Shown here: positions 8,816 to 16,212 of the stretch, piece after piece
How the letters are laid out: the number at the start of each line of letters is the position of its first letter
Numbering within the stretch: the first letter of the stretch is position 1
Assembly: GCA_044225365.1 (NCBI GenBank)
Contig: JBGAIQ010000018.1
Coordinates: forward strand, 1-64,000
Origin: Planctomycetota bacterium
GTDB taxonomy: Bacteria > Planctomycetota > B15-G4 > JADJEK01
Direction: 5' to 3'
Length of the DNA: 64,000 nt
Translations under genes and position numbers: made by a program
Notes under the pieces: model-generated
Databases searched by the model: none
The model's input: only the letters and a program-made list of their open reading frames with translations
What the model was told of the DNA's origin: nothing

Positions 8816-10852
<2,037 letters not shown>

Positions 10853-11090
10853 GCCTGCCTCCGAACCGCGGTGGATGTCGCGCACAAGCTAGACAGCGAA
10901 TCACGTCGGTGGAAGCTCGAATCGTGTGCTGCTCGCCTCCCTGTTCTCGACGCAATGGCGAGGGCACCTGAATAGCTTCTGCGGTTGCGGGCTCTCTTCG
11001 ACCGCATCGTGGACGATTTGCCGGCGCCGTTCGACGGCGCTTCGATCGCGCTCGATTCGGCCGGGCGAAGCCGGCAGCAGGCCGCGGTGC

Positions 11091-11133
11091 AAAAAAGAAG
11101 AGCGATGACCGGCTCTCCCGACGGTCACCGCTC
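11091..11133 (-). terminator. Intrinsic terminator
   Basis: Minus strand GAGCGGTGACCG-loop-CGGTCATCGCTC (12-bp stem) followed by TTCTTTTTT. Confidence 0.8.
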
Positions 11134-11285
11134 TCCTGAAGAGTGGCACTCCGCTCCGTTCAACGGAATGCCCAAGCCGAAGTCTCTCCTCCTCGACTCT
11201 GTCTCTCCGCACGAAACACACGACACCGCGCTGGCGAAGTCTGAACGCCAACTCGGGCGTGTCCAAAACCGTCCAGACCCGAGGC
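11091..11285 (-). ncRNA. Candidate GGA-hairpin small RNA (CsrB/RsmZ-like architecture) or structured leader of the prkA operon
   Basis: 9 GGA and 4 GGAGAG motifs, several in or at hairpin loops; terminator at 3' end; sigma54-like promoter at 5' end. Confidence 0.5.
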
Positions 11286-11293
11286 CATCTCTT

Positions 11294-11310
11294 ATCGAAG
11301 GCCGTGCCAA
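11294..11310 (-). promoter_or_regulatory. Putative sigma54 (-24/-12) promoter
   Basis: TTGGCACGGCCTTCGAT: perfect -24 TGGCACG; -12 has GA instead of the canonical GC. Confidence 0.45.
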
Positions 11311-11498
11311 TTGGCGGCGGCGGGTGCAATCGTTCGGGAATCGTTCGGATTCGAGACTCGACATTCGCGAATTCGGGAATTCGTTCCCGTTCTTGCTCAT
11401 TCTTGTCGAACCAGCCCGGATCGGAGCATGCGTCGACCGGACGCCCTGACGCGAATGTAGCAAGAATGAAACGCGCGAGGCTTCACGAACGGGGTCGA

Positions 11499-11572
11499 GA
11501 CTGGGAACGATCGTTCCCAGTCATCTCAAGCACCTATTTAAAAAGGACTTTTACGATCAGAACGATCGTTCT
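11499..11572. promoter_or_regulatory. Pair of palindromic operator-like sites (core GAACGATCGTTC)
   Basis: Perfect 24-bp palindrome GACTGGGAACGATCGTTCCCAGTC (11499-11522) and 14-bp AGAACGATCGTTCT (11559-11572), flanking an AT-rich tract. Confidence 0.55.
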
Positions 11573-11629
11573 TGCTCGCGAGGATCCGCCGTCCCCATGG
11601 CGGCGAAGGGCGAGCACGCGGGCTTCGAT

Positions 11630-12400
11630 TCAGAGCGCCTCGATGGTCATGTCGTCGACGGTGTACGCCGCGTGCTCGATCGAGGTCAGCGAATACTGGA
11701 ACGACGTCACGTCGGTTCCATCGCACAACATGCGGAGACCGCAGGCCGCGTACACGTCGGCTGGATCGTCGAGATTCGTGACCTTGACCCGCCAGGTTCC
11801 AACCTTTCCGGGTTGGAAGCTGAGGGACATCTCGATCCGGTACGGCACACCGAGCCCGACCCGATAGCTCGTCGGCGCATTGCCGACCTTCAGCATGCCA
11901 TCACTTCCGTACAAGGACATCGTCGCCAGTCGTCCAGTCCCGGGCGTCGTACGATTGTCGATGGCGCAGCACTCGAAGTTCGACGAACTATCCGAATCGA
12001 TTCGCCGCAACGTGAACGCGATGTAGGTTGGCGAACCGGGAGCCGCGCCGTTCGGGAACAGAGTCGTCTGGACTCCGCCCGGGCCCGGCTGGTAGTCGAT
12101 CAGCGAAAGACAATTGTTGGTGAGGTTCGCGTCGAGGCGAATGACATTCAGAGCCGTTTCGCCCGGTGTCTTGTTTCCCGCCATGAAGCCCACGGCCGAG
12201 TGAATCGCAGGAGAACTGGTCGCGCTGGCGCTGCCGTAGGGGCACGCACCGAGCGGATCATCGTCGAACGACTCGCTGAACAGGATGCGCGAACTCTGCG
12301 CGGTCGTCGAATGCGCGAACGAGAAGCCCACGACGCCGACGATCGCGACGCCGACGCTCTGCATCAGGGAACGAGCGCATACAGGCAATCGTGCAGCCAT
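11630..12400 (-). CDS. Exported hypothetical protein (probable beta-sandwich)
   Basis: N-terminal signal/TM segment, LFSESFDD start of mature part, VDDMTI end. Confidence 0.7.
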   Translation of the reverse strand: MAARLPVCARSLMQSVGVAIVGVVGFSFAHSTTAQSSRILFSESFDDDPLGACPYGSASATSSPAIHSAVGFMAGNKTPGETALNVIRLDANLTNNCLSLIDYQPGPGGVQTTLFPNGAAPGSPTYIAFTLRRIDSDSSSNFECCAIDNRTTPGTGRLATMSLYGSDGMLKVGNAPTSYRVGLGVPYRIEMSLSFQPGKVGTWRVKVTNLDDPADVYAACGLRMLCDGTDVTSFQYSLTSIEHAAYTVDDMTIEAL

Positions 12401-12557
12401 CTTCAAATCCTCGTCACGCGAAACGGGCGCCGCTCAGCACCACCGATCACGGAATCGGGAAGTCACGCTTTCGAGCCACGATTCGAAATCGACGCGAAAA
12501 AGCTTGGTGCAGCGCACCGCACCCTGGATCGAGATCATACACCGAATGCGCACGCCG

Positions 12558-15377
12558 TCAGGAGCTTTTCGACTCGGAGAAATCGCTTCCCAAGCGAATC
12601 GCCACGCCTCCCACGAGCATTGCGATGAAAGCGAGGAGGAGCCCGATTCGATAGCTCTTTGGGGAGTACTCGAACGTGACGTGCGAGTGCCCCTTGGGAA
12701 CCTCGACGGCACGGAAGGTGTTGTGAGTCCGCAGGATCGGTACCGATGCGGAGTCGACCTTCGCGCTCCAACCCGGAAAATCATTGTCCGTGAGAACCAG
12801 CAGCGCACGGTCTGAGGCCTCGATTTCGAGGTCCACTCGATTCAGGTCGTACTGCGTGAAGCGGACCGTGCCGGTTCCACTCAATCCGACCGGTGGCTCG
12901 ACATCGTTCAGGAACGCGTGGGTTCGCGGGTCCATCGCGAAGAGCTCCGCCTTGCGCGCGGACGTGAGGGGTTCACGCGCATCGACCGCCGAGGGAACGA
13001 GGAACGCCCGAGGCAGCGCGCCATGATTTCGATACACGCGCGAGCGGCCATCGCGTCCCGTGAACACGAGTTCGAACCCTGGGAGCTTCTCGAGCGGCAG
13101 CGGCGAGCCCGTCACCACGTAGGCGAGTCCGAACAGGTCGAAGTACGGATTCTTGAACTGAACCGTGTCGCGGTCGTAGCGAACGAACGGCGTGCCTCCC
13201 ACCAGCAGCTTCAACAGCCCGTCGAAGCGCGCGTTCTGCATCTGGTCGTAGGCGCGCACGACGGAGAGATCGTACGCGTGGTTCATGTTGGGCTGCAGGA
13301 TCACGTCCTCGCAGAGGACGCGGAACGGACCCGCGCCCGAAGCCATCGCCTTCTCCGCTTCCTGTGCGAGGAAGTCGGTGACACTCGTTCGCGGATAGAT
13401 CGTCTCGATCTTCTCCGCGGGGTTGTACACGACGGCGAACGTCACGAGTTCGATGGCGATCGCGACGGGAACGAGCCAAAGGATCGGCGCACGCAGAACG
13501 AGGATCGCGGCGACGAAACCGATTCCGAGTGCGATGCGCAGGAACGCAAGGAATCGATCGAAGGCGAGCGGGCGAGACACTTCCACATCCGTCGACGACG
13601 ACCGATGCTCGCCCCCATCCGGCGCCATGCAGACGGCATCGAGGACGTAACGACCCGCTTCCGCCTTCGACGCGTCCCAGCGATGCTGGAAGACACCGGT
13701 CGCATCGGGTTTCGCTTCGAACTCCACCCCGCCGATTCGCACGCGAACGCGTGCTCCAGCGACCTGCGGATCGACCCTGCCCACGACGTCGACGACGAGT
13801 TGCGACCCACCCTTGCCGTCGGGCAACGGTGTCAAGCGATCCCCCGAATGCGGCGATGTGATCTCGATCGCTGCATCGGACGCCGGGTTCTTCACGGCTC
13901 CCGGGAGCGGAACGATCGCGAGGAGCAGCGCGACGGGAAGGGCGCAGCCCACCCGTACGGCAGCGCCGCGATAGCGGTCGGAACCCCCGTTCCGGATCTC
14001 GTCGATCGCGAAAGCTCCCGCGAGGATCGCCCCCGTCGCGAACACCGGAAGCATGCGGGTACTCGCAGCGAGGTCGAAGAGCGGTAACTCACGGAGCAGG
14101 CCGTTCAGCGGTTCGACGAAGCAGGCGAAGCCCAACCCGAATGCCATCGTCGACAGACAGAATCGAACTCGCGCCTTGTCGACGGCCACGACCACGAAGA
14201 GCAGCGCGAGGGAGAGGAGCACGATCCCCACGTACCCGCCGTTGACATCGGGATACGCCTCGGGTCCGACGTAGGCCGTGCCGCGAGCCGGATTCCCGTA
14301 CGAGTCGGGATCGAGCAGGAGCGCGCAGAGGGGCCGTGCTCCGAGGAGCCTCCAGGCGACGACCGCGCCTCCCAGGATCGCGCCTGCGATACATCCGAGG
14401 GCGACGCCACCGAATCGGCCGCCCCGCTCCTTCCGCAGCAGTAGGAAAGCCGTGGCGACCGCCACCAGACCGGTGAGAGCGAGAGCCCCGCCTCGCGCCG
14501 AGAACAGTTCGATCCCGTTCCGCGCGATCTGATGCGAATGCAGTTCCTGCCGCTCGAGTCGGCCCGTGGAGCGCGCGAGGTATTCGACGAACGGGAGCAA
14601 CTGGAACGAACAGAGCATGAGCGCGAGCACGCCGTACGGAAGGAGCCGCACGAGGCCGCGCCATCCATCGTGATGAACGACCCATGAGCAAACGAGGATC
14701 CCGATCGCGAGCGAGGTCTCGGCGTGTCCGCCGAGGAATTGAAGTGCGAGCACGCCTGCGAGGACCATTCCCCTCAAAGGTGAGGGTCGCTCTCGAAATC
14801 GTTCCGTTGCCAGCAGGCAGAACGGAATGAGGCACGACACGTTCGCGAGCGAGTAGTTCAGCCACACGACCTGGTAGCCGAACAGCATGAAGCCGATCCC
14901 GGATGCGAGCGCAGCCACGCGTGACGTCCGAAGGCAGCGCGCGAGCAGATATCCGCCGATTCCCGCAACGAGTAGTTTGAACAGCGCGGCGTAGAACATT
15001 CCGCGAGCGACGCCGACCGCGGGGAGGAAGCACAACCACGTCGCCGGGAAGAACAACGCCGACGACAGGTTTCCCATCATCGGGAGTCCACCGCCCGAGA
15101 GCGGCGTCCAGAGCGGCAACTCACCGTTCTGGACGTGACGCGCCATGAAGGCGAGCCACGGATAGAAGACCATTGCGGTATCCGAGGGTCCCGGATTCGA
15201 CGCGACGAATCCGTCGGGCCGCACTTCCGCGAACGGGACTGCGTTCGAATCGTTGTAGAGTGGATCGACCGACACCGGCGCTCGATCGGATGGCAAGCAA
15301 CGCGCGAGAGCCGCCAAGGCGACGATCACGAGCAAGCCGAACGATGCGATTCCGATCAGGCGTCGATCAAGCTGCAA
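12558..15377 (-). CDS. YfhO-family (GT-C) membrane glycosyltransferase with inserted Ig-like domain; start uncertain
   Basis: GELPLWTPLSGGGLP, ALFFP, GGH.E, ALPRAFLV, DNDFPGWSAKVD, FRAVEVPKG.S.VTFEY.P. Confidence 0.85.
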   Translation of the reverse strand: MQLDRRLIGIASFGLLVIVALAALARCLPSDRAPVSVDPLYNDSNAVPFAEVRPDGFVASNPGPSDTAMVFYPWLAFMARHVQNGELPLWTPLSGGGLPMMGNLSSALFFPATWLCFLPAVGVARGMFYAALFKLLVAGIGGYLLARCLRTSRVAALASGIGFMLFGYQVVWLNYSLANVSCLIPFCLLATERFRERPSPLRGMVLAGVLALQFLGGHAETSLAIGILVCSWVVHHDGWRGLVRLLPYGVLALMLCSFQLLPFVEYLARSTGRLERQELHSHQIARNGIELFSARGGALALTGLVAVATAFLLLRKERGGRFGGVALGCIAGAILGGAVVAWRLLGARPLCALLLDPDSYGNPARGTAYVGPEAYPDVNGGYVGIVLLSLALLFVVVAVDKARVRFCLSTMAFGLGFACFVEPLNGLLRELPLFDLAASTRMLPVFATGAILAGAFAIDEIRNGGSDRYRGAAVRVGCALPVALLLAIVPLPGAVKNPASDAAIEITSPHSGDRLTPLPDGKGGSQLVVDVVGRVDPQVAGARVRVRIGGVEFEAKPDATGVFQHRWDASKAEAGRYVLDAVCMAPDGGEHRSSSTDVEVSRPLAFDRFLAFLRIALGIGFVAAILVLRAPILWLVPVAIAIELVTFAVVYNPAEKIETIYPRTSVTDFLAQEAEKAMASGAGPFRVLCEDVILQPNMNHAYDLSVVRAYDQMQNARFDGLLKLLVGGTPFVRYDRDTVQFKNPYFDLFGLAYVVTGSPLPLEKLPGFELVFTGRDGRSRVYRNHGALPRAFLVPSAVDAREPLTSARKAELFAMDPRTHAFLNDVEPPVGLSGTGTVRFTQYDLNRVDLEIEASDRALLVLTDNDFPGWSAKVDSASVPILRTHNTFRAVEVPKGHSHVTFEYSPKSYRIGLLLAFIAMLVGGVAIRLGSDFSESKSS

Positions 15378-15492
15378 ACTCGTCGTCCTCAAGGTCTTCT
15401 CGCAGTTCGACGAAACGATATCATCCCGCGGCTTGCGAATCTCGCGAACGATCGTGAGGATCGCCGGTTGCTCCCTCCACCCCGCAGGCCCC

Positions 15493-16212
15493 ATGATCAG
15501 CGCGGTCGTTCCCGTCTACAACGAAGCCCTATGCCTCGAAGCGTCGCTCGAGACGCTCTCGGCATACCTTCGTTCGCGGTACGGCGATGCCTTCGAGATC
15601 GTGGCGGTCGACGATGGCAGCCGCGACCGCAGTGTGGAGATCCTGCGAGCGAACGCGGAGAAGAAGCGCATCCGCGTGCTCGAGAATTCGGTCAATCTCG
15701 GCAAGGGCGCGACCGTGCGGCGTGGAATGCTCGAGGCGGCGGGCGATCCCGTGTTCTTCACGGACGCCGACCTCTCGACTCCGCTCGAAGAACTCGAGCG
15801 GTTCGAGGAGATGCTGAGATCCGGCAAGGACGTCGTGATCGGAACGCGCAAGCACGCCGCGGCGAGCATTTCGAAGGCACAGAACGCGGTCCGCACGTAC
15901 ATGGGACTCGGGTACACGAAGCTCGTGAATTCTCTGCTCGGACTCTCGCTCTCGGACTACACGTGTGGATTCAAGCTGTTCTCGCGTGAGGCCGCGCAAG
16001 CGATCTTCTCACGAAGTGTGACCGACGGCTGGTCGTTCGACGCCGAGATCATGTTCCTCGCGAAGCGGCTCGGGTTCGAGATCGCGGAGATCCCCGTGCA
16101 CTGGGAGGATAAACCGGATTCCAAGGTTCGGCTCGTGCGCGACACCACGCGCTCCTTCGCCGAACTCGTCGCCATTCGGCTGCGGGCCGCGCGGGGCGGA
16201 TACGGGCGATGA
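15493..16212 (+). CDS. GT2 polyprenol-phosphate sugar synthase (DPM/DPG synthase-like)
   Basis: SAVVPVYNE, VDDGSRD, NLGKG, FTDADLS, D.TCGFKLF, FDAE. Confidence 0.9.
   Translation: MISAVVPVYNEALCLEASLETLSAYLRSRYGDAFEIVAVDDGSRDRSVEILRANAEKKRIRVLENSVNLGKGATVRRGMLEAAGDPVFFTDADLSTPLEELERFEEMLRSGKDVVIGTRKHAAASISKAQNAVRTYMGLGYTKLVNSLLGLSLSDYTCGFKLFSREAAQAIFSRSVTDGWSFDAEIMFLAKRLGFEIAEIPVHWEDKPDSKVRLVRDTTRSFAELVAIRLRAARGGYGR

Follow-up and report, generated by a model that had tools for sequence, protein, structure and literature searches.

A candidate sigma-54-controlled small RNA gene upstream of prkA-yeaH-spoVR in one family of uncultured Planctomycetota

The locus and the predicted RNA unit

The window analyzed in this work, 64,000 nucleotides of contig JBGAIQ010000018.1 (contig C89 in the numbering used here), belongs to genome G000 of a Planctomycetota bacterium, an assembly of 6.53 Mb in 103 contigs with 65% G+C and an estimated completeness of 94.3%. 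On its minus strand, a gene for a YfhO-like membrane protein is followed by an open reading frame (ORF) of 258 amino acids, a gap of 778 nt, prkA, a gene for a DUF444 protein (yeaH-like) and spoVR, as assigned with Pfam. The element described here, a predicted non-coding RNA of approximately 194 nt (11091..11284, minus strand), is located in the 778-nt gap between the 258-amino-acid ORF and prkA. Its 5' end was placed roughly 12 nt downstream of the -12 G of a putative sigma-54 promoter, and its 3' end at the end of a U-tract.

The initial annotation of this region, made from the letters of the sequence, had proposed an undescribed sigma-54-driven sponge RNA of the CsrB/RsmZ type. As detailed below, the proposed discrete non-coding unit, with its own terminator and ahead of prkA-yeaH-spoVR, and its assignment to sigma-54 were borne out by the comparison with related genomes and by Pfam, whereas the part of the proposal concerning a CsrA sponge was not.

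Nine GGA and four GGAGAG motifs had been counted in about 195 nt, and the same numbers were obtained for the 200-nt stretch 11290-11091 of the minus strand. The background consisted of 260,524 windows of 200 nt from both strands of the whole genome. The mean number of GGA was 3.79 (standard deviation 1.98), and nine or more were present in 4,638 windows (1.8%). The mean for GGAGAG was 0.063 per 200 nt, with only two windows reaching four copies. The four GGAGAG motifs, at 11208-11203, 11189-11184, 11136-11131 and 11118-11113 (minus strand), form the sole cluster of four in the genome, in which eight other clusters of three were found. At about position 21624 of contig C17 (plus strand), three tandem 9-nt repeats of the form GGGAGAG(A/C)(T/G) directly follow an ATG with an upstream GGAGG; they resemble a repetitive gene start, and their context is unrelated to the RNA.

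The fold predicted by RNAfold for the whole RNA had an energy of -98.6 kcal/mol (z = -3.83), and none of 200 shuffled sequences was equally stable. A 9-bp hairpin (11174..11199, minus strand) carries the loop AGGAGAGA (11183-11190), in which the GGAGAG at 11184-11189 is exposed with an unpaired probability of 0.96. The next, penultimate hairpin has 11 bp and the loop GAACGG (11145..11172, minus strand), and its GGAG motifs sit in the 3' arm, outside the loop. The last hairpin (11096..11137, minus strand), which was found by a scan with the terminator consensus, is followed directly by the U-tract (11091-11095, minus strand), and its loop region (11112-11121, minus strand) holds the sequence GGGAGAGC. 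A terminator with a U-tract had thus been recognized correctly, but with a stem of 12 bp, whereas RNAfold gave 16 bp at -29.1 kcal/mol.

All four GGAGAG motifs had been assigned to positions in or at the loops of consecutive hairpins. This was confirmed for two of them, predicted to be unpaired in the loop of the 9-bp hairpin (0.96) and in the terminator loop (0.80). Pairing is predicted for the remaining two: the first pairs with CUCUUC (unpaired probability 0.04), and the third makes up the base of the terminator stem (0.00).

Conservation, covariation and distribution

A blastn search with the 261-nt unit against 40 relatives yielded one meaningful match, the terminator of genome G004 (E = 0.0028). 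Because this plain DNA search found almost nothing, homologs were sought through gene order. The N-terminus of PrkA was present in 36 of 41 genomes, G000 counted, and 1.4 kb upstream of prkA was read at 30 of these 36 loci. A -24/-12 box together with a terminator carrying the GGGAGAGCC loop was found in six of the 30 upstream regions, namely in G000, in the three genomes of genus g6 (G005, G010 and G011, the last with locus L026), in G001 (L029) and in G004 (L030). This corresponds to six of the 12 genomes and four of the seven genera of the family. The lineage is planctomycetal, in agreement with the non-proteobacterial lineage suggested at first.

Each unit combines a -24/-12 box with hairpins spanning 161-198 nt and a terminator with the loop NNGGGAGAGC. 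In all six genomes it lies between prkA and the gene corresponding to the 258-amino-acid ORF, the product of which is predicted to be a secreted lectin-fold protein.

Alignment with MAFFT was convincing for the 3' half only. For the two 3' hairpins, 93.0% of the aligned cells were paired, compared with 76.4% in shuffled alignments and 36-46% in slid controls. Changes on both sides were observed at 15 of the 24 pairs, a number reached in none of 500 shuffles. Helix 1, corresponding to the hairpin at 11145..11172, had 84.9% of its cells paired, and five of its nine pairs had changed on both sides. In the terminator helix, 97.8% of cells were paired, and ten of the 15 modelled pairs showed compensatory changes.

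The loop GGGAGAGC and its closing CCG/CGG were invariant in all six copies, and the word conserved among them is GGAGAG(A/C)C. Because this invariant loop lies inside a covarying stem, selection at the RNA level is indicated. It is the frozen loop within a drifting stem that is telling here.

In all six copies, the unit ends in an intrinsic terminator, with stems of 14-16 bp, energies of -26.5 to -31.5 kcal/mol and four to six U, and the GGAGAG of the terminator loop is unpaired with a probability of 0.80-0.96; the loop motif expected in the relatives is thus conserved and exposed. The counterpart of the internal GGAGAG in genus g6 is the hairpin loop UUGGAGAGAG, with an unpaired probability of 1.0. 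The two exposed sites are 71-98 nt apart. The relatives carry two GGAGAG each, which does not fit the many-site sponge first envisaged. No ORF within the RNA was conserved across the copies, and no relatives were found for the larger ORFs overlapping it.

A covariance model built from the 3' domain (two hairpins) scored the six copies at 70.6-97.8 bits and anything else at 34.8 bits or less. No further true copy was found in the 42 genomes of the order, which represents the whole class, and none beyond the family in a sample of 151 genomes of the phylum. The weak matches (20.9-32.1 bits for five in the order; 34.8 and 25.7 bits for two in the phylum sample) were rejected as ordinary terminators or coding sequence. 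At 80 metagenome prkA loci with 66-72% identity the element was not found (best E = 0.42), and a stricter pattern gave no match in metagenome contigs.

A broad pattern scan of genome contigs returned at least 119 stretches. Of the 80 that were scored with the model, 77 were chance matches and three were true, the latter belonging to entries named Planctomycetota bacterium or uncultured Phycisphaeraceae bacterium. A family-wide loop pattern gave 12 matches in nine of the 12 genomes, and the six of these without hairpin and U-tract were regarded as chance. No sibling RNA turned up elsewhere in G000. On these sequence searches, the RNA gene looks confined to one small family of uncultured Planctomycetota.

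The search of Rfam for positions 10500-12000 gave no match at E <= 10, and none was obtained at E <= 1 for the elements of loci L025, L029 and L030. No description of a regulatory RNA from Planctomycetota came up in full-text literature searches. The main text of PMC12316311 contains no mention of prkA, yeaG, sRNA or non-coding; the supplementary promoter tables of that paper could list the box.

Promoter region and neighboring genes

The -24/-12 box TGGCACGGCCTTCGA (11295..11309, minus strand) has the form TGGCACG-N4-TCGA, with TGGCACG at 11309-11303, as originally read. In the relatives, the box was found at the same place and with the same spacing as TGGCACGCCGTTCGC (three genomes), TGGCACGGCGATCGC and TGGCCCGCGGCTTGC. 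The -24 GG, the -12 GC and the fixed spacing of a sigma-54 promoter were therefore present, with A replacing the -12 C in G000. Sigma-54 itself is encoded in G000 (Sigma54_DBD match, 5e-59), as are enhancer-binding proteins (EBPs), with approximately 24 strong matches among 31 to Sigma54_activat. An upstream site is present as well, to which the binding of an EBP is predicted.

Two copies of the palindrome GAACGATCGTTC were identified upstream of the box on the minus strand. The distal copy (11560..11571) begins 262 nt before the T of TGGCAC, and the proximal copy (11505..11516), 55 nt from the distal one, begins 207 nt before it. This 12-mer was found upstream of the box in all six genomes, with site centers 158-256 bp from it. 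Paired sites 55-59 nt apart were observed in G000, G004 and G001, the second copy in the latter being one letter off, and a single site at -164/-165 was observed in the three genomes of genus g6. The proximal sites, at 158, 169, 181 and 201 bp, are spaced by approximately whole helical turns, which is taken as a weak indication.

Only four copies of GAACGATCGTTC occur in the 6.5-Mb genome; two of them lie at the RNA locus, and the other two are not beside a sigma-54 box. The palindrome is likely to be an EBP site. Together, the box and the palindromes would make up a promoter of the EBP-dependent type, equipped with an upstream activator site of its own. The sigma-54-like promoter proposed for this locus thereby gained support, as both box and palindrome are conserved in the relatives.

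Further sequence features were noted around these elements. Two direct GAACGAT half-sites (11346-11340 and 11335-11329, minus strand) lie just upstream of the -24 box, in G000 only. A second perfect palindrome, TGTTTC-N6-GAAACA, was present 20-40 nt downstream of GAACGATCGTTC and before the box in G011 (L026) and G001 (L029); it is degenerate in G010, G005 and G004, and only GTTTCA is retained in G000. It could be the site of a second regulator or a DNA-bending site. A lone GAACGATCGTTC copy at position 63231 of contig C97 of G000 lies about 30 nt upstream of an ORF with a MarR-like look (an impression, without a Pfam check), and this copy may be a different regulator's operator sharing the core.

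The canonical consensus TGGCAC-N5-TTGC[AT] did not occur in G000 despite sigma-54 and its approximately 24 EBPs. The candidate sigma-54 boxes of this genome carry TCGC at -12, a form that was common (21), compared with one case of TTGC. Counts of promoter patterns across the genome did not prove informative when compared with reversed-pattern controls. A fourfold enrichment of TGGCAC-N4-YGCA was rejected as a promoter signal, as the 53 sites proved to lie antisense to cytochrome CXXCH codons, six of them within about 1.3 kb on contig C41; given these haem-binding codons, the genome therefore encodes many multihaem cytochromes.

Downstream of the unit, prkA (8816..10852, minus strand) starts 239 nt past the U-tract and is followed by the DUF444 (yeaH-like) gene and spoVR. 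The Pfam E-values were 3.8e-85 for the PrkA AAA domain, 8.2e-92 for the PrkA C-terminal domain, 4.2e-88 for DUF444 and 2.1e-136 for SpoVR. No regulator gene was found among the neighbors within about 10 kb of the RNA. A proximal sigma-70-like promoter of prkA itself, TTCCAC-N16-CTAGCT, was noted at about 10914-10887 (minus strand), and similar promoters, TTGAGC-N17-CTAGTT or CTAGTG, were seen in G008 and G003, both without the RNA. A motif (CTTGAG-N5-6-)CTCAAGAAA(A)CC, roughly 100-130 nt ahead of prkA, is conserved at loci L023-L031 in relatives with and without the RNA; it is not apparent in G000 and probably serves prkA as an operator or promoter element.

Upstream of the unit, the 258-amino-acid protein (11630..12406, minus strand) is preceded by the YfhO-like gene (12558-15494, minus strand). 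Its N-terminus resembles a signal peptide, Pfam gave no match, and its structure model, with a predicted local distance difference test (pLDDT) score of 61, shows a ConA-like lectin fold, with legume and L-type lectins and alginate lyases as the best fold matches. According to this modest model, the product may be a secreted lectin-fold protein. Conserved motifs of the family are FxESFDDDPVG, IDNRTTPGTGR and a C-terminal FDIDNV, and its members include, besides the gene at 11630-12406 of the window, L029:28-732, L030:21-767 and L025:2606-3358.

Homologs of this protein (28-33% identity) were found in all six genomes with the RNA and also in G009, in which the contig stops immediately after the gene; searched with this query, the remaining five genomes of the family gave none. 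Because the homologs track the RNA-bearing genomes, the RNA and the gene appear to have been gained or lost together, which physical linkage alone may explain.

Interpretation and comparison with known systems

The promoter, the upstream palindrome, the covarying terminator stem, the loop motif and the gene order are conserved among the six genomes. On this comparative evidence, the unit is, somewhat more probably than otherwise, an independent small non-coding RNA gene of approximately 194 nt activated by an EBP and sigma-54; from the same features we infer its transcription, its ends, EBP binding, action in trans and a partner. Its standing as a separate unit is supported by the strong terminators, by the lack of a conserved alternative pairing and by the proximal promoter of prkA being retained in genomes without the RNA (G008 and G003).

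In the proposed mechanism, an EBP would occupy both GAACGATCGTTC palindromes, 200-260 bp upstream of the TGGCACG-N4-TCGA box, and from there would activate the sigma-54 RNA polymerase at this box. Transcription would end at the very stable intrinsic terminator, and the mature RNA would display two exposed GGAGAG motifs, one in the internal hairpin and one in the invariant terminator loop, which are likely to be its working surface. Acting in trans, the RNA could hold an RNA-binding protein, possibly dimeric, other than CsrA, Hfq and ProQ, or alternatively could pair with a C/U-rich RNA. As regards the motif, the 3' end of 16S rRNA is the canonical CCUCCUUUCU, and the Shine-Dalgarno sequence used in G000 is GGAGG, not GGAGAG.

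Several findings weigh against an independent EBP-controlled RNA of this kind. The RNA is a prediction from sequence; a metatranscriptome run (X1) contained 10% of the sampled words of 10600-11700, and the two contigs from it that cover 10680-10836 lie inside prkA and are silent on the RNA. The box of G000 reads GA at -12, whereas the five relatives read GC (TCGC or TTGC), and no EBP gene was found on the contig of the RNA in G001, G005 and G010. The exposure of the internal GGAGAG is uneven across the relatives (0.45 in G004 and 0.12 in G001). The six copies represent four independent lineages of a single family, so that the covariation rests on few events, and a terminator stem is expected to covary irrespective of the role of the RNA.

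The search for a base-pairing partner or a wider use of the motif points in the same direction. No complementary CUCUCC site was present in the six loci, so that no partner is found there. Complementary 8-mers near possible gene starts amounted to 10-11 of 275-299 and were judged not enriched, without a formal control. GGAGAG was found in the loops of hairpins of at least 6 bp in 196 of 4,247 cases (4.6%), compared with 4.2-5.2% for six control hexamers. The tandem placement upstream of prkA also fits a leader.

In that explanation, which is considered unlikely though the strongest of the competing ones, the unit is a sigma-54 leader of prkA-yeaH-spoVR, the box a second, starvation-responsive promoter of prkA, the hairpin a conditional terminator that is read through when a factor binds the GGAGAG loop, and the short RNA a by-product. 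Co-orientation with prkA directly upstream, at a distance of 200-300 nt in all six genomes, is consistent with it, as is the NtrC activation of E. coli yeaG (bioRxiv 10.1101/254623; PMC4664914), and the invariant terminator loop could serve as a handle for an antitermination factor. However, no antiterminator pairing is conserved, the stems are very stable and the U-tracts good. The spacer to prkA is unconserved except for the proximal promoter motifs of prkA, which are also present in relatives without the unit, and the unit is inherited with the upstream lectin-fold gene.

Less probable still is the absence of any functional RNA, the hairpin being the terminator of the lectin-fold gene and the box, palindromes and GGAGAG motifs having roles at the DNA level. 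The hairpin does lie downstream of the 258-amino-acid ORF on the same strand, and the case for an RNA has been built from sequence data. On the other hand, the hairpin is located about 500 nt past the stop codon of that gene, with the conserved -24/-12 box and palindrome in between, the penultimate hairpin covaries too, and the invariant loop in its covarying stem points to selection on the RNA.

The CsrB/RsmZ-like sponge titrating CsrA/RsmA, which the initial annotation had favored, is largely refuted and must be considered very improbable. The enrichment of GGA (nine in 200 nt, a level reached by 1.8% of genome windows), the two exposed GGA-containing loops and the occurrence of CsrA elsewhere in Planctomycetota, as stated in PMC12316311, would agree with such a function. 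Yet the search for CsrA (PF02599) was negative for G000 and for all 42 genomes, of which 19 have a completeness of 90% or more, with a model that detected the positive controls of E. coli, B. subtilis and T. maritima. FliW was not found in G000 either, no Rfam match was obtained, and the conserved word is GGAGAG(A/C)C rather than A(N)GGA, with two such sites in the relatives. Because these genomes appear to have no CsrA, the RNA is not regarded as a CsrA sponge.

Finally, a leader-peptide attenuator, suggested by the 16-codon TTG ORF that in G000 follows GAGGAG and ends within the 5' arm of the terminator, is refuted by sequence comparison, as this ORF is unique to G000, the ORFs in L026 and L029 share neither its sequence nor its position, three of the five relatives (L025, L027 and L030) have no ORF of at least 10 codons, and no alternative pairing is conserved.

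For the independent EBP-controlled RNA, a more specific and rather doubtful idea is that it acts as a decoy for a so far unrecognized global regulator reading GGAGAG loops, switched by an EBP and sigma-54 beside the PrkA module. If true, it would be a new protein-RNA regulatory pair and not a Csr homolog, in a lineage in which none of the three classical partners of small RNAs was found (CsrA and ProQ in G000, Hfq in the 12 genomes of the family).

A well-delimited small RNA with an enhancer site and an exposed motif would offer a way into the post-transcriptional control of such bacteria, and its fixed position before prkA-yeaH-spoVR suggests a testable link between sigma-54 signaling and a poorly understood starvation module. 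Given the narrow family and a still hypothetical function, it is for now mainly a lead.

The RNA looks like a previously undescribed and narrowly distributed member of a kind already known, the EBP/sigma-54-controlled small RNAs. The CsrB/RsmY/RsmZ family is built from GGA-containing hairpin loops, one of them in the terminator loop, and is transcribed from GacA-type promoters. The GGA hairpin loops, including that of the terminator, are shared with the RNA described here, which in contrast has a sigma-54 promoter, few sites, no CsrA and no Rfam match.

Sigma-54-dependent base-pairing or decoy RNAs of Gammaproteobacteria include Qrr, controlled by the NtrC-type regulator LuxO, and GlmY, controlled by GlrR. 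They resemble the present unit in a dedicated EBP site, a sigma-54 promoter and a short terminated RNA. Unlike it, they depend on Hfq or RapZ and belong to a different phylum, and there is no sequence similarity between them.

The nearest working analogies are CrcZ/CrcY of Pseudomonas and Pxr of Myxococcus xanthus. According to PMC5113210, RpoN and the EBP CbrB drive the expression of CrcZ and CrcY, small RNAs that hold a protein via repeated short motifs. In CrcZ, these are A-rich motifs for Hfq/Crc, whereas here the motif is GGAGAG, with approximately two copies exposed, and Hfq was not found in the 12 family genomes.

Compared with Pxr, the RNA is longer, carries GGAGAG loops and has neither sequence nor Rfam similarity; the gene upstream of it codes for a putative secreted lectin-fold protein, and in three relatives the contig of the RNA carries no EBP gene. 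What the two have in common, as far as Pxr is described in PMC5684412, is a set of few stem-loops, a predicted sigma-54 promoter with an upstream enhancer region and a bacterium without hfq, and Pxr is tied there to the starvation response.

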